A stretch of DNA of 64,000 nt from the NCBI GenBank assembly GCA_963666485.2, contig CAXXUO010000001.1:928001-992000 (forward strand), in the 5' to 3' direction. The translations under genes and the position numbers were made by a program. Source of the stretch: Syntrophorhabdaceae bacterium. Its GTDB lineage: Bacteria > Desulfobacterota > Syntrophorhabdia > Syntrophorhabdales > Syntrophorhabdaceae. Positions 1-22,064 of the stretch are shown piece by piece. The notes under the pieces were generated by a model. It was given only the letters and a program-made list of their open reading frames with translations. It did no database searches and had not been told where the DNA came from. Every line of letters starts with the position of its first letter. Within the stretch, counting starts at the first letter, position 1.

Positions 1-641
1 ATACAGTGAGGCGACAGGGCCACGATCTCCCGCACACCGTATTCCTTGAACGTTCCGAGGTTTTCTTCCTGGAGTTCTTCGAAAAGCCCGGACTCTCCGA
101 TCCTGCGTATCTCGTTCCCGCAGCAGGCCTCCTCCTCGCCCAGTATGCCGAACTCCATCCCGCCGGCCTTCAACAGCCGCGCGACGTTAACGGGGATCAC
201 CATGCACCGGGGATCGTAGGCCTGGATACAGCAGACGAAAAGGAGCCTTTTGCTTTCGGTTTCGCTTACATGCGGAACCTCGAAATCGAGCTTTTCGAGC
301 CACTCTCCGCGTTTGTTGCGCGAGCGGCCCCACGGGTTCTTCTGAACGAAGGTGTTTTCGAGCGCCTTCTGCAACGCCAGCGGTATATCGCCGTCCTCGA
401 CGAATTTTGACCGGAGCTCTATGACGACCTCGGAGGGTTTCACGTCCCGGGGACACCTGAGTGTACATGCCCCGCACGATGTACAGTACCAGGGAATCGA
501 CTCTTCGACATCCGATTTGAACTGGGTCTTTCGTACGAGCATCCTGACATTGAAAGGCGTCTTCCCGGATTCGGGGCATCCTCCCGTGCATTTGCCGCAC
601 TGGATGCACGTTAAAGCCCGTGTAGCAGTCTGTTCAGGCAT
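1..641 (-). CDS. HdrD/GlpC-like (Fe-S)-binding oxidoreductase with CCG domain, partial (runs off left edge)
   Basis: Manual translation from ATG at 641: MPEQTATRALTCIQCGKCTGGCP...WYCTSCGACTLRCP...FVCC...ACCG...SPHC. Two ferredoxin-type motifs plus CCG motifs. Absent from the ORF track because there is no stop in the window. Confidence 0.85.
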   Translation of the reverse strand, partial: MPEQTATRALTCIQCGKCTGGCPESGKTPFNVRMLVRKTQFKSDVEESIPWYCTSCGACTLRCPRDVKPSEVVIELRSKFVEDGDIPLALQKALENTFVQKNPWGRSRNKRGEWLEKLDFEVPHVSETESKRLLFVCCIQAYDPRCMVIPVNVARLLKAGGMEFGILGEEEACCGNEIRRIGESGLFEELQEENLGTFKEYGVREIVALSPHC

Positions 642-2759: not shown

Positions 2760-4109
2760 ATGATCAGTGTATTGATCGTCGACGATGAGTCGAAACTTGT
2801 CGAGGCTTTCATCATGCAGCTCACGAAGGAAGGAATGAAGGTGTCCGGCGTGTTCAACGCCGCGGATGCCCTCGCAGCGCTCAAGAAAGAATCATTCGAT
2901 GTCGCAGTCGTTGATATAAGGCTGCCTGATCTCGATGGCGTGAACCTCCTTTTAAAAATGAAGCAGGCCGAGCCGGCGCTCGAGATCATTATGCTGACCG
3001 GTTTTGCATCGGTCGACACGGCCATCCGCTCTATGAAGCTCGGTGCGTACGATTACCTGACAAAGCCCTGCAAAATATCCGAGCTCGCGGCGATCATAGC
3101 GAAGGCTGCAGAAAAAAAGGCCCTCGCCGAGAACAACCTCGTCCTGAAGGAACACCTCATGCGGGTCGCGGTCCACGACAACTTCGTCGGCGAAAGCAAG
3201 GCAATGAAGAAGGTCAAGGAATTGATATCGATCGTCGCCCCCTCGAACACCCCGGTCCTGATCCAGGGCGAGACCGGGACAGGAAAGGAGGTCGCCGCGC
3301 GCGCCATTCACGACCAGAGCCCGCGCGCTTCGAACCCCTTTGTCGCCATCAATTCGAGCGCGCTGCAGGAGACGATCCTCGAAAGCGAGCTTTTCGGCTA
3401 CAAGAAAGGGGCATTCACCGGGGCACAGTCGGACAAGCTGGGCCTTCTCGATATTGCCAATAACGGGACCCTGTTCATCGACGAGATAGGGGACATGGGG
3501 CTCGCGATACAGGCGAAGCTCTTACGCGTCCTCGAGACGGGATCGTTCATGAAGCTCGGCGACACGAAGGAAACGAAGGTGGATGTCCGGTTCATTTTTG
3601 CCACGAACAAAGACCTCAAGGAGGAGATCGAGGAGAAGAAATTCCGGAACGATCTCTTCTTCAGGATAAACACGTTCATCATCACCCTGCCGGCCCTGCG
3701 CGACAAGAAAGAGGACATCCCGCTCCTTGTCAGTTACTTTCTCGAAAAGTTCAGCACACCGGGTGAAAGGAAACGTCTCGCTTCCCGGGCCTTCGATGTC
3801 TTCATGGCATACGGCTGGCCGGGAAATGTACGGGAACTCGTCAACGTCATCGAAAGGTCCGTTTTGATCAGCGGGAAACGTGCGGAGATAATTTCGGATG
3901 ATTTCCCGGAAAACCTGGTCAAGGATATCCCGTCCGGGTCTTTGCCTTTCAACCTTCCCGCGCCTTCGACCGCGGTTGACCTCACGAGCATGGAGGACGA
4001 GCACATCCGTAACGTCCTTGCATCTGTCAGCGGCAACAAATCGGAGGCGGCCCGCCTCCTTGGCATCAGCAGGAAAAAACTGTACAGCAGGATAAAGAAA
4101 GACGGGTAG
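2760..4109 (+). CDS. sigma54-dependent response regulator (NtrC/AtoC family)
   Basis: Receiver (VDDE, DIRLPD), Walker A GETGTGKE, GAFTGA, WPGNVREL, Fis-type HTH. Confidence 0.95.
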   Translation: MISVLIVDDESKLVEAFIMQLTKEGMKVSGVFNAADALAALKKESFDVAVVDIRLPDLDGVNLLLKMKQAEPALEIIMLTGFASVDTAIRSMKLGAYDYLTKPCKISELAAIIAKAAEKKALAENNLVLKEHLMRVAVHDNFVGESKAMKKVKELISIVAPSNTPVLIQGETGTGKEVAARAIHDQSPRASNPFVAINSSALQETILESELFGYKKGAFTGAQSDKLGLLDIANNGTLFIDEIGDMGLAIQAKLLRVLETGSFMKLGDTKETKVDVRFIFATNKDLKEEIEEKKFRNDLFFRINTFIITLPALRDKKEDIPLLVSYFLEKFSTPGERKRLASRAFDVFMAYGWPGNVRELVNVIERSVLISGKRAEIISDDFPENLVKDIPSGSLPFNLPAPSTAVDLTSMEDEHIRNVLASVSGNKSEAARLLGISRKKLYSRIKKDG

Positions 4110-4112
4110 GGA

Positions 4113-5975
4113 TCACTTTTTGCCCTTCATCCTGCGCACGGCAAGCCCCGGGGTCAGGGCTGTGGCCAGGGACAGGTGCAACCGTTTTTCGCGGTACATG
4201 AGCTTCTCGGCGACAAGCCATTCCAGGATCTCTGCGGCCGGCGGCACCGAAGCCGGGAATCGCTCCGCGATCCGGTCTTGTGTACGTATTTCCATGCAAA
4301 AGAGGTAGACTGCCCGCCACGGTCCCGGCAGCATTATGGTCCGGCACCCGTCGCGCCTGTCGACAATCTCGAGAAAATTCCCGCCATCGTGGTAATACAG
4401 GGGATGCGGCACAGGAAACCGGTCGTCCTTCCTCAACGTCTCGTGGAGCTCCCGCCAGTCGGAACAGGCCTGTTCTACAGGACTCCAATCCACCGGGTTC
4501 GGGGCATCCCAGCTTCTATCCGGCAGAATGAGTTCGTCCGCCGCTTGGGGCGGCAGGCCGCACCGGTAGTCTTCAAGATTACGGACGTTCTTGATCCCGT
4601 ATTTTTCCCGGAAGATGTCCACCGCACATCCGGGGGAAAGTTGAAAGGAAACAGTGCGTGGGGGAGGATAATAGGCACAGGCATAATCGCGAATAGCGGC
4701 TGCCGTTTCTTCCACTTCGTCCGCCGTCGCCCCGGGGAAATTTATGATCAGGTTCGTGTTGTTCCATATACCGAGTTCATGACAGGTCCTTAAGACCTGC
4801 AGGTTGCGTATGACCGTGGTGCCCTTGTTAAGACGCGACAGGTAGCTGTTCGACAAGCCTTCAATGCCGCACTCACACCGCACCATTCCTGCTTCATAGA
4901 GACCCAAAACATCCCGCGCCGTGGTATTGGCCCTCAAGCTTGTAAATATCGAGAATTCGCCGCGGCGCCGTTTCAAGGCCGCCGCCAGTTCCCGGATGCC
5001 CCGGGGCCGAACTGCATTCTCACAAAATACGATGCGGACATTCCGGTAGCGGCGGGCCAGGGCCCCAACCTCGCGGGCGATCCGCGCAGGCGACTTGTCC
5101 CGGTAGGCGCGCCCTCCGAAATTGCAGAAATAGCAGCGGTCAAGGGGGTTGCCCGTCCGCGCTGTCCTATCCCACCAACACCCGCGCGACCCCTCGACCG
5201 GGATGTTCCAGATAATGCTCAGGCTGTCGGCCTTTTTGGCATATTCGTCATAATCGGGGATGGGCAGGGAATCGAGGTCGGGAACCTCCGGGCAGGTAAC
5301 GGCCGGAATGCCCGTGTTCTCCCGGGTCATTATCCCGGGCACTCCCGGATCCGGGTCATGTTCTTCGCTTAAGGCAGTAAGAAGATGTTCGAAGGGGATC
5401 TCTCCTTCGCCCTCGACAATATAATCGACATAATCGAAGTTTTTCAGCACCGCGCGGCCGCGGTCCCCGCTCACCGCAGAGCCGCCGAGCACAATTCGGA
5501 CGCCCGGGGACACCTCCTTTATACGCCGGGCAACGGAGAGACTGGAAAATTCCTGATACAGGCTCGTCGTGAGTCCCACGACACTCTCCCCGGCGAGGGC
5601 CGCGGCCAGCGCATCCCGGTGCTCCACCAGTTCTTCGCGAACCCTGTCAAAGAATTCGTTCCAGGATTGGCCGAACTTCGGCGCGGGCGGCTCTTTGCCT
5701 TCCTCGGCAACGGCCCGCTCAATAAATGCCCGTTTTACCGCTTCACGGTGTTCCGGGAAAAGCGTCGACAGGTATATGCTTTCGCCGAGGACACTGTTGT
5801 TCCGAAAGACCATATAGATGTCGGCACCGACCCGCCTGAATATCTCGAGATGTTCCGAATGACAGGTGAGCTCTATGCGGGGTATCCGGGTGCGGATATA
5901 AGCGGACAGGGCACCGAGCGCGGAAGACGGCATGCCGAAATCGCACCACGGCATCGAAACGAGGGAAACCTTCAT
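4113..5975 (-). CDS. B12-binding radical SAM enzyme, RiPP maturation C-methyltransferase type (TIGR03975-like)
   Basis: N-terminus VSMPW...PSSALGAL, B12-domain GLTT/IVLGG/VEGEGE, PIPDYDEY, EGSRGCWW...CYFC, CGIEGLS..L..LNKG, C-terminal FLEIVDRR segment typical of this family. Confidence 0.85.
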   Translation of the reverse strand: MKVSLVSMPWCDFGMPSSALGALSAYIRTRIPRIELTCHSEHLEIFRRVGADIYMVFRNNSVLGESIYLSTLFPEHREAVKRAFIERAVAEEGKEPPAPKFGQSWNEFFDRVREELVEHRDALAAALAGESVVGLTTSLYQEFSSLSVARRIKEVSPGVRIVLGGSAVSGDRGRAVLKNFDYVDYIVEGEGEIPFEHLLTALSEEHDPDPGVPGIMTRENTGIPAVTCPEVPDLDSLPIPDYDEYAKKADSLSIIWNIPVEGSRGCWWDRTARTGNPLDRCYFCNFGGRAYRDKSPARIAREVGALARRYRNVRIVFCENAVRPRGIRELAAALKRRRGEFSIFTSLRANTTARDVLGLYEAGMVRCECGIEGLSNSYLSRLNKGTTVIRNLQVLRTCHELGIWNNTNLIINFPGATADEVEETAAAIRDYACAYYPPPRTVSFQLSPGCAVDIFREKYGIKNVRNLEDYRCGLPPQAADELILPDRSWDAPNPVDWSPVEQACSDWRELHETLRKDDRFPVPHPLYYHDGGNFLEIVDRRDGCRTIMLPGPWRAVYLFCMEIRTQDRIAERFPASVPPAAEILEWLVAEKLMYREKRLHLSLATALTPGLAVRRMKGKK

Positions 5976-6021
5976 AGGAATTTATTATTCGAACGCAAAT
6001 GACGCCCTGTGTCTCGGGCCC

Positions 6022-6444
6022 CTAAACGCCCGCGCCCCCCGTTGCCGCCCGCAGCTTAAATTTAGGGTCCAACACTGTTCTCGGTGGAATAACCACAGCA
6101 GCCTCGGTTGCGACACTGGCGCCCGGCGTCGACCCCTGTTTTACCCGGGGAGCGGTCCGGCTGTCGAGAGTCTCCTTTGCCGGCGCGGACGGGGTGGCCC
6201 CTGTCTTGACTTTCACGCCGGATGCCGATGAACCGGAAACAGTCCCTCCCGGTGTGGCGCCTGCCTTAACATTGGCAGCAGCACCTTTCTTCACCGTGGG
6301 CTGCGTTGCCGCGTCCGCGGTCTTCACATTTTTCCCGCCGGCTATCTGGCCTTGCACCCCTTCCACGGGTGCCGCCCCGGCTGAACCGACTGCAAGAACC
6401 GCTCCCGTCACGGCGAGAATGACACCGCTTATTTTTCTGCCCAT
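6022..6444 (-). CDS. Secreted low-complexity VKxG-repeat protein, candidate RiPP-like precursor 1
   Basis: AGGAGGAG RBS before ATG 6444; signal-peptide-like N-terminus ending AGA-A; four VKxG motifs; paralogous to the neighbouring gene; directly upstream of the radical SAM gene. Confidence 0.75.
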   Translation of the reverse strand: MGRKISGVILAVTGAVLAVGSAGAAPVEGVQGQIAGGKNVKTADAATQPTVKKGAAANVKAGATPGGTVSGSSASGVKVKTGATPSAPAKETLDSRTAPRVKQGSTPGASVATEAAVVIPPRTVLDPKFKLRAATGGAGV

Positions 6445-6494
6445 AGCTCCTCCTGCACCGTATCTGAATTAGTCCTGATATTTTATGCAGCCGG

Positions 6495-6926
6495 TTATCG
6501 CTTTATGACTTCCTGCGCCGCGGCGCCACCCGACTCAGCGCCTGATTTTACCTTGGGGTTTGCTCCCTGCGTCGCCTTCCCGGCGAGGGCCGTGCCTGCC
6601 TGGCCGCCCGGCGTTGACCCCTGTTTTACCGAGGGATTGACCTTGCTTCCAAGCTCAGACTTCGTCGGTGTGGACGGGGTGGCGCCTTTCTTTACTTTTA
6701 CGTCGGTTGCCGATGCGGCTCCTCGGGAAGCGTCGTTAATCCTGACGTTGGTCCCGGCAGCGCCCTGTTTCACCTTCGGCTGAGACGTCGCGTCCGCGGT
6801 CATGACGTTCCTGCCGGCCGCTGCCTGCTCAACGCCGGTCTGCGCAGCGGGTACGGCACCGGCTGTGCCGACCGCGAGAACGATACCTGTTACGCCAAGA
6901 ACGACACCCGTTATCTTCTTGCCCAT
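6495..6926 (-). CDS. Secreted low-complexity VKxG-repeat protein, candidate RiPP-like precursor 2
   Basis: AGGAGG RBS before ATG 6926 (MGKKITGVVLGVTGIVLAVGTAGA); four VKxG motifs; paralog of 6022-6444. Confidence 0.75.
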   Translation of the reverse strand: MGKKITGVVLGVTGIVLAVGTAGAVPAAQTGVEQAAAGRNVMTADATSQPKVKQGAAGTNVRINDASRGAASATDVKVKKGATPSTPTKSELGSKVNPSVKQGSTPGGQAGTALAGKATQGANPKVKSGAESGGAAAQEVIKR

Positions 6927-6996
6927 AGTTCCTCCTGTGCCTGTTATCGTTGAAAGCATTTTCCAATAATTTCCCGAAACTAGTCAAGGTTAATCA

Positions 6997-7026
6997 TTGA
7001 CCGCTCTTCAGGCCATATTCTATACT
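6997..7026 (+). promoter_or_regulatory. Possible sigma70 promoter
   Basis: TTGACC-N18-TATACT upstream of the serine hydrolase. Confidence 0.35.
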
Positions 7027-7080
7027 CGAGCATAAACCTTGAAGATCCTGATACTTAAGAAAATTAAGGGGGATGAGAAG

Positions 7081-9162
7081 ATGCCGGTAGCACGCAAAAG
7101 ATTGTCGGGACCCTGTCTTATTCTTTTCTGCGCGATGGCCTGCATTGCCGGGCCCTTGCTTTGCCCAACCCCCGCAGCTTCCTTACCGCCAGATTACGGC
7201 GAGACGATCTCGGACGCGCGTTCCGCCGCCGAAGAAACGATAGAGAAGACCGGGGCATCGTCGATCTCTCTCGCCCTCATTGAAGACGACAGGCTGGTCT
7301 GGGCCGGGCAATTCGGCCTCGCCGATAAAACGGCCAAGGCCGCACCGACCAAGGAGACGTTGTATGCGATAGGCTCGACCAGCAAAATGATCGCGGCCAT
7401 TGCCGTCATGAAACTCGTCGACCAGGGGAAGGTCCGCCTCGATGAGCCGGTAGTCACATACATCAGATCTTTCCGTATGGTCTCCCCGGAATATAAAAAG
7501 ATCACCGTCAGGATGCTCCTCAACCATTCGTCGGGCTTTCCCGGAACCGACTGGCGCAACGGGTTCACGACATCTCCCCTCAAACATAAGTATTCCTCAC
7601 AGGTGCTGGAAACGCTTGCGTACGAGCGGCTCAAGCACCCGCCCGGCTACCTCAGCGTCTACTGCAATGACGGGTACACGGTCGCTGAGCAGCTCGTCGA
7701 GGCCGTGACCGGCAAAGACTACGCCCGGTTCGTTGAGGACGAGATCCTGGCACCTCTTCAGATGCATAACAGCCGGTATGCGCTCGACCGCGTCCCCGAC
7801 GGCAGCTTCGCCAGGCGTTATGACAAGGACGGCAAGGAACTGCCGTTCCTTTTCATAAATGTGCTTGGCTCCGGGGGGCTCTATTCGACACCCTCCGATA
7901 TGGCGAGACTCGCCGGGATGTTCATCGGGAGAGGAAAGCTCGGCAGCGTGCGGGTCCTCTCGGAAAATTCCGTTGCGAATATGGCGGAAGACCAGACCCT
8001 CAAAAGTTTCAACCCCGTGAAATCCGACATGGTCAGCTACGGGCTTGGCTGGGACACGGTGCACCAGCCGGGGCTTGGCGCGGTGGGCGTCACGGCATGG
8101 CAGAAGGGGGGCGCCATCCCCTATACAAAATCCATACTGACCATCGCGCCCGATGAAAAACTGGCAGTGTTCGTGGTCGGCGCCTCGGGCAATTTCGGCT
8201 CTGATCATGCGGTGGTGCTCGCTGAAAGGGTCATGCTCAACGCGCTCAAGGAAAAGGGAAGGATCGCGTCCCTGCCCGCGAAGCTCAGCGCAAAGGTACT
8301 CCCCGTTAAACCTGTTTCCGTCGTGCAGCTGAAGCATTTCAGCGGTTACTATGCCAATAGCGGGGGATTGATGCGCGTTCGCAGGGGCCCCGGCCACACC
8401 CTGGATGTCTCACAGTACGACGCCGGGACCCGAACATGGAAAACCTGGCAGGCCGGGCTGAGGATGCGTGCGGGAGATCGATTTTCGCGCGCGGAGGAGC
8501 CTTTACGGTCTTTCTCGTTCATCTCCGGCGACGGCCGGCACTATCTCGTGTCCCGGTCCGTTGCGGGATACGGCCATTACCAGGACAACGAGATCATAGC
8601 CCAGAAGGTGTCTGAATCGCGGCCCGTGCCGACCGTATGGAAGGGGCGGCTTGACCGCGAATGGCTCCTCGCGAACGACAATCCCTCATCCGAGGGGTGG
8701 CTCGAACCCTCGACAGGTCTTTTACACATCGCCAATTTGCTTTTGTACGGCGGCGCCCAGGCTGTTGACCCGTTCCTCTCCGGTACGCGCGCCGGGATGA
8801 GGCTCGTCATTCCCCAGATCAAGGGAAGGGATTTGAACGACGTCGTTATCGAGAAACGCGGCGGCCAGGAATGGCTGCGTATCGGCAGCTTTCTTTTCCG
8901 TCCCCGTGACGGGGCAGGTAAACTCAAGGCGGGGAGGAACAGTATCATCGCGGCCCCGGACGGCACCGCAGAATGGCGCTTTGTCGATATGTCCGGCGGC
9001 CCGAAGCTCATCGGCATCAACCCCGATACGCCCGATGGGACTTGGAGGATCTACGACGGCAGCCTGAAACATATAGAAACCGGGAAAGGGAAAAAGGATG
9101 TCACACTTCCCGGCGGGAAATATTACCTCCTTTTCCATCACAATGCACTCGTGACGTACTGA
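7081..9162 (+). CDS. Secreted serine hydrolase, beta-lactamase/PBP-like family, with C-terminal extension
   Basis: IGSTSK (SxxK), LLNHSSG, YCN (YxN), GGLYST..D, hydrophobic N-terminal signal. Confidence 0.85.
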   Translation: MPVARKRLSGPCLILFCAMACIAGPLLCPTPAASLPPDYGETISDARSAAEETIEKTGASSISLALIEDDRLVWAGQFGLADKTAKAAPTKETLYAIGSTSKMIAAIAVMKLVDQGKVRLDEPVVTYIRSFRMVSPEYKKITVRMLLNHSSGFPGTDWRNGFTTSPLKHKYSSQVLETLAYERLKHPPGYLSVYCNDGYTVAEQLVEAVTGKDYARFVEDEILAPLQMHNSRYALDRVPDGSFARRYDKDGKELPFLFINVLGSGGLYSTPSDMARLAGMFIGRGKLGSVRVLSENSVANMAEDQTLKSFNPVKSDMVSYGLGWDTVHQPGLGAVGVTAWQKGGAIPYTKSILTIAPDEKLAVFVVGASGNFGSDHAVVLAERVMLNALKEKGRIASLPAKLSAKVLPVKPVSVVQLKHFSGYYANSGGLMRVRRGPGHTLDVSQYDAGTRTWKTWQAGLRMRAGDRFSRAEEPLRSFSFISGDGRHYLVSRSVAGYGHYQDNEIIAQKVSESRPVPTVWKGRLDREWLLANDNPSSEGWLEPSTGLLHIANLLLYGGAQAVDPFLSGTRAGMRLVIPQIKGRDLNDVVIEKRGGQEWLRIGSFLFRPRDGAGKLKAGRNSIIAAPDGTAEWRFVDMSGGPKLIGINPDTPDGTWRIYDGSLKHIETGKGKKDVTLPGGKYYLLFHHNALVTY

Positions 9163-12710: not shown

Positions 12711-12726
12711 GGCAATTTTGATGCCA
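12711..12726 (-). promoter_or_regulatory. sigma54 (-24/-12) promoter
   Basis: TGGCATCAAAATTGCC (GG-N10-GC) upstream of the ligase start at 12672. Confidence 0.75.
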
Positions 12727-18777: not shown

Positions 18778-18793
18778 AGCAATTTTAATGCCA
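18778..18793 (-). promoter_or_regulatory. sigma54 (-24/-12) promoter of the TRAP operon
   Basis: TGGCATTAAAATTGCT (GG-N10-GC), about 40 bp upstream of dctP. Confidence 0.8.
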
Positions 18794-22048: not shown

Positions 22049-22064
22049 AGCAAATATAGTGCCA
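22049..22064 (-). promoter_or_regulatory. sigma54 (-24/-12) promoter of the kinase-regulator operon
   Basis: TGGCACTATATTTGCT, matching TGGCAC-N5-TTGCW. Confidence 0.75.

Follow-up and report, generated by a model that had tools for sequence, protein, structure and literature searches.

Which protein does a B12-binding radical S-adenosylmethionine (SAM) enzyme modify when its gene follows two genes for small, repeat-containing proteins with signal-like N-termini? The question is raised by a locus in a stretch of 64,000 nucleotides (the window) from a Syntrophorhabdaceae bacterium (assembly GCA_963666485.2, contig CAXXUO010000001.1, positions 928,001 to 992,000 of the forward strand). Three co-oriented genes lie there on the minus strand in the order B, A, enzyme. 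Small gene B (6495..6926) encodes 143 amino acids, small gene A (6022..6444) 140, and the enzyme gene (4113..5975) 620; the enzyme is a member of the TIGR03975 family. A preliminary description of the window had pointed to two paralogous genes of about 140 codons directly upstream of a TIGR03975-like gene, and the open reading frames (ORFs) are indeed arranged in this way.

Here we report that a small gene of the same kind accompanies the enzyme gene in other genomes. We consider it rather probable that the two form a minimal unit of just two genes: its enzyme would methylate the repeat motifs of the small protein in the cytoplasm, and the general Sec pathway would export the product. Proteins A and B probably represent a type of secreted protein, modified by an enzyme, that has not been described before. 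We infer methylation and export from the family membership of the enzyme and from sequence features; binding of the two proteins, the site of methylation and the cleavage of the signal are likewise proposed steps.

Conservation of the gene pair

Below, G000 is the genome of the window, other G-numbers denote other genomes, and L-numbers denote individual loci or contigs. A signal-like small gene with [VI]K repeats was found directly upstream of the enzyme gene at every readable contig of the window, L026 and L027 types. Enzymes 73-76% identical to that of the window have such a neighbour in G025 (contig L025), in G027, and in the metagenome contigs L105 and L106, where the arrangement of the two genes is the same. 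In L026 (enzyme 57% identical) the neighbour encodes a signal-bearing protein of 115 amino acids with IKIKEDAKPG-type units and the C-terminus DLTRR. In L027, a contig of G030 (enzyme 44-45% identical), a signal-like [VI]K-repeat gene again lies directly 5' of the enzyme gene. According to the preliminary description, a lack of such neighbours at close enzyme homologues would refute its idea; the small gene is present at all three levels of identity, 73-76%, 57% and 44%, and this test did not refute it. As it keeps this position despite differing flanks, the pairing of the two genes is not due to chance.

Among 96 genomes of the class, the small-protein profile matches four, and the enzyme (E <= 1e-40) matches five. 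Every genome matched by the small-protein profile (G000, G025, G027, G030) has the small gene directly 5' of the enzyme gene. The fifth genome with the enzyme, G007, has 34%-identical enzymes encoded behind a SPASM-type radical SAM gene (L021, 156-1457, plus strand; L023, 204-1475, plus strand). In L023, an ORF at 30-173 (plus strand) encodes a 47-residue peptide with the leader end EEVAGG, which is the conventional layout of a ribosomally made peptide that is modified after translation (RiPP) in the same bacterial family.

When species genomes were scanned with the enzyme, 79 loci were obtained, four of them with at least 44% identity (L025, L026, L027, L028). In L028 (48%, Acidobacteriota), the gene directly 5' (3294-3962, plus strand) encodes a low-complexity protein of 222 amino acids that has neither a signal nor a lysine motif and contains three repeats of the QPLP-W-AGV...EALPT type. 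Substrates with repeats may thus be general in this enzyme clade. In L029 (41%, Acidobacteriota), a peptide of 92 amino acids with no signal is encoded directly 5' (3508-3786, plus strand); its four repeats start with NHNQT and end with VKAG, so that it has the VKxG motif in common with the window proteins. Motif scans of 33 loci for signal-like or VKxG ORFs, and of 79 loci for at least three [VI]KxG motifs, retrieved only L029 besides L025-L027. Other "hydrophobic" ORFs in the scan of 33 loci were rejected by eye as spurious frames of GC-rich DNA.

For six more small-protein clusters the longest contig is equal in size to that of an enzyme cluster (36179, 3885, 3981, 699142, 4348, 59687), with at least one source in common; the matched enzyme clusters are 57-76% identical to the window enzyme. 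This shows that small protein and enzyme share a contig, adjacency not being implied. A quick maximum-likelihood tree was built from 58 enzyme rows. In it, a fully supported clade of 18 rows unites the window type with the L026 type, and all nine rows of known context in this clade are of the signal type. The clades of G030 and L028 join it in an unresolved, fully supported group of 27 rows.

These data bear on the possibility that A and B are ordinary secreted low-complexity proteins, the true substrate of the enzyme being encoded elsewhere or not being a protein. Indeed, the language-model look-alikes of A and B are small secreted low-complexity clusters resembling YjbE and YbgS (scores 0.84-0.86, to be taken as leads only). 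However, the adjacency is kept down to 44% enzyme identity over differing flanks and phylum labels, the cassettes contain no other candidate precursor, and the small-protein family equals the enzyme clade in rarity and patchiness. We therefore regard a bystander role of A and B as very unlikely.

The small proteins

The signal-like segments of A and B comprise residues 1-24 (nucleotides 6373-6444 and 6855-6926, respectively, both on the minus strand). Four VKxG motifs follow in each protein, VKKG51, VKAG59, VKTG79 and VKQG101 in A and VKQG52, VKKG78, VKQG100 and VKSG126 in B, exactly as listed in the preliminary description. When each protein was shuffled 20000 times with its composition kept, 3 of the shuffled sequences contained at least four such motifs. 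The absence of Cys, Trp, Tyr and His from both proteins and, by simple rules, their Sec-like signals also agree with that description.

A and B are diverged tandem paralogues with 53-55% identity. Relatives have one gene copy each, and B is closer to them than A; thus A is, as judged by these comparisons, a local duplicate, and the two-copy state is particular to the window genome. Gene B is the counterpart of the single-copy gene; its product ends with EVIKR, and the product of gene A has lost the C-terminal pentapeptide. The start of gene B was set at MGKK, which is common to all relatives, the longer ORF extending to 6959. Differences between homologues are about twice as common at third codon positions (e.g., 28/20/71 at positions 1/2/3 for B and its G025 homologue), which indicates that the frames of the small genes are the true coding ones and not antisense ORFs. 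The class proposed in the preliminary description, undescribed secreted proteins with a C-methylated repeat core, is consistent with the recurring pair and the family membership of the enzyme; its two-copy composition reflects only the local duplication.

No Pfam or NCBIfam family, including NHLP and Nif11, matches A or B at E <= 0.01, and four relatives of these proteins match no family model at E <= 1. The lack of a known leader noted initially is thus borne out by the family searches. The segments QIAGG in A and EQAAAG in B, which had been likened to double-glycine leader ends, do exist. However, they are parts of a conserved xGKNV motif in which Gly-Gly is not conserved among the homologues, and a leader end of this type is not supported. 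No peptidase-type transporter was recognised among the neighbouring ORFs of the loci read, no family search having been aimed at one. AlphaFold2 (AF2) modelling on a 14-row alignment of small proteins gave no secondary structure, with a mean predicted local distance difference test score (pLDDT) of 50. A and B are therefore predicted to be disordered, as expected for a peptide-like substrate.

Members of the small-protein family have 84-146 amino acids. Signal peptides were judged by simple rules for the n-, h- and c-regions. By these rules the n-region is positive in all 19 scored members, and each of them has at least 18 uncharged residues in a row and a small-x-small pattern with x-Pro behind it. 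The tails of these proteins are net basic, and no lipobox was seen by eye. The repeat unit x-[P/V]-[K/T]-[V/I]-K-x-[G/D/N]-[A/S]-x-[P/A]-G occurs in one to five copies in each of 22 members, 69 units in total. The lysine of the unit is present in all 69 by definition of the search, and in 43 of them lysine also occupies position -1. The segment after the signal is strand-like: in six of eight subfamilies it contains, by eye, K-N-[VI]-x-[VIT]-x-D, and in proteins of the A/B type it is the short conserved segment GKNVxTADA. Many members end with (Y/E/D)-L-(I/T)-(K/R)-R.

The family is rare. A word-indexed search of 5.8 billion clusters retrieved 11 proteins, all of which, except the entry of A itself, are 51-67% identical to A. 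A HMMER pass over 1.84 billion representatives produced nine matches at E <= 0.001, seven of them small proteins of like build (P0007, P0012-P0017). The other two are a protein of 1101 amino acids and a repeat ORF, P0019 (213 amino acids), in which LQWNPAVKTGST is repeated with irregular spacing and unrelated stretches in between. P0019 looks like a translated array of DNA repeats, similar to CRISPR, and not like a relative of the small proteins. The small-protein profile matches two of 401 sampled genomes of the phylum, and the family is present in one of 301 genomes of the order to which the L026 genome belongs; at the same time, the source labels of its members span several phyla. This patchiness across phylum labels suggests horizontal spread.

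The enzyme and its C-terminal domain

The enzyme scores 301.5 bits with the TIGR03975 model (curated cut-off 281.85); residues 3-605 are aligned with model positions 1-606, so that the match spans the whole length, and the genome search had the same outcome. The initial assignment to this family is hence upheld. The radical SAM domain (PF04055) covers residues 280-426 with 66.3 bits. For the B12-binding domain (PF02310, residues 121-198) the score is 31.4 bits, slightly short of the cut-off of 32.1; this domain is among the precomputed domains of many, not all, close homologues. The sources label these homologues "RiPP maturation radical SAM C-methyltransferase". The cluster-binding cysteines C266, C281 and C284 (5124..5180, minus strand) form the motif Cx14Cx2C, which is invariant in all 17 aligned homologues.

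For PoyC, a review gives the cluster motif Cx7Cx2C and describes methylation of valine and isoleucine at the beta-carbon (PMC11285071). The difference in spacing is one reason to consider that A and B are substrates of another chemistry: repeated methylation that builds up larger alkyl groups, modification of lysine carbons, or a rearrangement or cross-link without methylation. The same possibility is favoured by the TIGR03975 score, only 20 bits above the cut-off, and by lysine being the invariant residue of the repeat unit (in the 69 units found with a pattern that contains it). Further, the best solved relatives of the enzyme include TokK and OxsB, and OxsB is not known to be a methyltransferase. 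On the other hand, the family that is matched over the whole length is one in which the characterised enzymes are C-methyltransferases of peptides, and the cores lack Cys and aromatic residues for the usual cross-links. Hence, we consider a different chemistry quite unlikely.

The C-terminal part of the enzyme (approximately residues 524-602; 4170..4406, minus strand) is modelled by AF2 as a winged-helix domain of three strands and three helices, resembling a RiPP recognition element (RRE). The model of residues 488-620 has a pLDDT of 91 and a predicted template modelling score of 0.81; it contains strands at 39-43, 47-52 and 58-63, then three helices, plus a further hairpin. In a structural comparison with VIA-align, the top row is the leader-bound RRE of the lasso peptide protein TbiB1 (5v1u_A, Z 6.9, root-mean-square deviation 2.6, 72 residues aligned). 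It is followed by the leader-bound B1 protein 6jx3_B (Z 6.6) and the RRE of TigE, a radical SAM enzyme (Z 6.5), and each of these rows covers the strand-helix core of the domain. Prediction of a complex between the enzyme (alignment A4) and protein B (alignment A3) gave a score of 0.00 in both of two runs, which we count neither way.

The window genome has a second B12/radical SAM gene (G000:C1:888343-889587; L004, 916-2751, minus strand), about 40 kb before the window, whose TIGR03975 score of 126 bits is below the cut-off. It lies 3' of an ORF for a signal-bearing cupredoxin-like protein (124 amino acids) and an ORF of 230 codons with a Tat-like signal.

A candidate pathway of modification and export

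The gene pair may constitute a self-contained maturation unit of two components, with the substrate gene duplicated in the window. The candidate precursor would consist of the Sec-type signal, the strand-like segment GKNVxTADA, one to five repeat units, and often the C-terminal pentapeptide. Firstly, the enzyme would dock the still cytoplasmic precursor, nascent or prior to export, through its built-in C-terminal RRE-like domain. Candidate recognition elements are the K-N-[VI]-x-[VIT]-x-D strand past the signal, or the h-region of the signal. Secondly, methyl groups would be moved onto unactivated carbons of the repeat units, the likeliest target being the beta-carbon of the conserved valine or isoleucine beside lysine, as in the action of PoyC on valine. 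Thirdly, the methylated product, still unfolded, would cross SecYEG, which it could still pass because methyl groups are small. Finally, cleavage by signal peptidase I behind A-G-A would leave a cationic polypeptide of approximately 118 residues in the periplasm or beyond.

Under this scheme a dedicated protease or transporter would not be needed. Small methyl marks, Sec export and signal peptidase would suffice, and this would explain why no such gene occurs at the pair. The lack of an exporter in view, noted originally for the window, also extends to the other loci read, where neither an exporter gene nor a protease gene is a conserved neighbour of the pair. As to the role of the product, our guess is a protease-resistant cationic polypeptide of the surface or matrix, or an antimicrobial one. 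We also offer, more tentatively, a wider proposal. The proteins could be the first Sec-exported class matured by a B12 radical SAM enzyme. Two genes would make up a mobile unit, and the signal or the next strand would double as a leader read by the built-in RRE. Several lysine-flanked valines or isoleucines would be C-methylated before export to tert-leucine-like residues, which would provide syntrophic anaerobes with an extracellular polycation that resists proteases.

Several observations weigh against this pathway. The repeat proteins of L028 and L029 have no signal peptide, and thus, as far as their sequences tell, the signal is not obligatory for the enzyme clade. B12 radical SAM enzymes also perform chemistry other than methylation. 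Homology of the window proteins with the proteins of the 57% and 44% clades is statistically weak outside the signal and one motif: when a four-sequence alignment was compared by profile to the proteins of L026 and L027, nothing aligned except the signal segment (E 5.9e-5) and a motif of 11 residues (E 0.033). The Z values of the RRE rows are tied with those of generic winged-helix proteins, so that the assignment of the predicted domain as RRE-like is suggestive, not proven. A Foldseek search of the domain against the PDB retrieved nothing at E <= 0.001, with TbiB1 at rank 28, and the last 145 residues of the enzyme match no Pfam family, PqqD included, at E <= 10. Finally, the radical SAM gene is broken into two or three overlapping frames in G027 (L015, 7430-9311), G030 (L019, 1357-3359, the same as L027, 4001-6003) and L105 (2145-4020). 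This could be due to assembly error or decay; in G027 a neighbouring sigma-54 regulator gene is split as well, which suggests assembly errors rather than decay.

The h-region is a further point of this kind. It is unusually conserved and rich in glycine, so that it might remain uncleaved as an anchor or be what the enzyme recognises. Residues G7, V8, L10, V12-G14, L17, V19, G20 and A22-A24 are invariant in four of four sequences, and G14, G20 and P26 in 14 of 14. The same gene pair might therefore produce a protein whose N-terminal hydrophobic segment stays in place as a membrane anchor, a recognition sequence, or both, with the modified lysine-rich tail remaining on the cytoplasmic membrane. 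The many small-xxx-small spacings of the segment fit such an anchor, and in the hhalign comparison the distant L026 protein is tied to the family solely by its N-terminal segment. However, A-x-A followed by x-Pro stands directly past the h-region in all 19 scored members, as for a signal peptidase I site, and with about 17-20 residues the h-region is short for a stable anchor. Thus a permanent anchor appears unlikely, and we prefer export with cleavage of the signal.

Comparison with known systems

The enzyme resembles PoyB and PoyC of the proteusins (TIGR03975, rSAM_ocin_1) in its putative N-terminal B12 domain, its radical SAM core with a lengthened first cysteine spacing, and the adjoining gene of a candidate ribosomal substrate. 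The repeat unit is centred on valine or isoleucine, the residues on which PoyC acts (PMC11285071). Unlike proteusins, the proposed window substrates have no NHLP or Nif11 leader, carry a predicted Sec-type signal, and belong to a family of proteins of 84-146 amino acids with lysine-rich repeats. Moreover, no epimerase, dehydratase, protease or transporter accompanies the window pair, and the cluster motif is Cx14Cx2C, not Cx7Cx2C. By sequence, the enzyme groups with the proteusin C-methyltransferases, and the proposed substrates fail the defining leader test of proteusins.

Bufferins are RiPPs with Sec signals, and their authors state that bulky or macrocyclic modifications would make poor Sec substrates (PMC11626156). 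Bufferins and the window system, as proposed here, would have in common long precursors with an N-terminal Sec signal, modification in the cytoplasm, export by the general pathway without a dedicated exporter, and minimal biosynthetic gene clusters. The differences are the enzymes and the substrates. Bufferins require a multinuclear non-heme iron-dependent oxidative enzyme (MNIO) with a DUF2063 partner, whereas here the B12 radical SAM enzyme has a built-in RRE-like domain; bufferins are Cys-rich folded metallophores, whereas the window proteins are Cys-free and predicted to be disordered. DAG-RiPPs are products of ChrH-type MNIO enzymes that take the lipoprotein pathway (PMC13056109). They also use a housekeeping signal-peptide pathway instead of a dedicated protease and exporter. 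However, they have a lipobox cysteine, lipidation and another enzyme family, and the window proteins have, by eye, no lipobox. No ORF fitting an MNIO (DUF692) enzyme was found beside the pair, by Pfam for six proteins of the window and by eye for the flanks at other loci.

Anaerobic sulfatase-maturing radical SAM enzymes modify signal-bearing sulfatases in the cytoplasm before Sec export, and in this respect they are analogous to the proposed system. They are of the SPASM type, not B12-dependent, and act on one site in a folded enzyme; their substrate is no repeat polypeptide. In the literature covered, which did not extend to subscription journals, no paper was found that describes a B12 radical SAM enzyme together with precursors bearing Sec signals.

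RiPP mining relies on short peptides, known leaders and dedicated proteases or exporters, and a signal-bearing repeat protein of this size with a single enzyme is hard to see by these means. If the proposed chemistry is true, C-methylation by B12 radical SAM enzymes would reach beyond proteusin toxins to exported proteins. The housekeeping-export logic of the MNIO systems would then extend to a second, unrelated class of enzymes. It would also provide a compact pair of enzyme and motif (x-P/V-K-V-K-x-G-A-x-P-G) for placing beta-methylated residues at several sites of a polypeptide.

Expression signals and flanking genes

A candidate sigma-70-like promoter TTGACT-18-GAAAAT is located just 5' of gene B (6958..6987, minus strand; match to the consensus only, 9 of 12 positions); three such sites were observed in the region, with 1.2 expected. 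A terminator-like GC hairpin with a T-rich tail, also a consensus match only, occurs 54 nucleotides past the stop codon of the enzyme gene (4043..4059, minus strand). AGGAGG stands 7-8 nucleotides upstream of the ATG in both small genes, in line with the strong ribosome-binding sites initially reported. The inspected upstream region of the enzyme gene has no site of the AGGAGG type before the ATG. Strong Shine-Dalgarno boxes on A and B and none on the enzyme gene fit a surplus of substrate over enzyme. No Rfam match was observed in 3800-7400 at E <= 1, and the folds of intergenic RNA are unremarkable (z -0.36 and -0.66).

The flanking genes seem unrelated to the pair. They differ between the window, L026 and L027 types, and no conserved third gene was found beside the pair among the loci compared. 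A gene for a protein of 707 amino acids with a beta-lactamase fold runs divergently from gene B (7039-9162, plus strand). The protein has a hydrophobic N-terminus, a beta-lactamase/DD-peptidase fold (PF00144) at residues 64-381, and a C-terminal part of about 320 residues without a family match. Its gene was considered as a candidate third gene and rejected, since G025 and G027 lack it at this place and it adjoins the pair in the window and L106 alone.

The genes of a histidine kinase with a PAS domain and of a sigma-54 response regulator (2760-4109) converge on the 3' end of the enzyme gene. No sigma-54 promoter with at most one mismatch lies 5' of gene B; the six matches in the window (3.7 expected) are all elsewhere. 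Sites of the form TGGCAT/C-N5-TTGC were observed at 12712-12726, 18779-18793 and 22050-22064 (all on the minus strand), one of them exact. The first is located approximately 40-55 nucleotides upstream of the likely MGGEKRF start of an acyl-CoA ligase gene. The sigma-54 regulator may serve the fatty-acid and aromatic-acid genes with these sites rather than the cassette.

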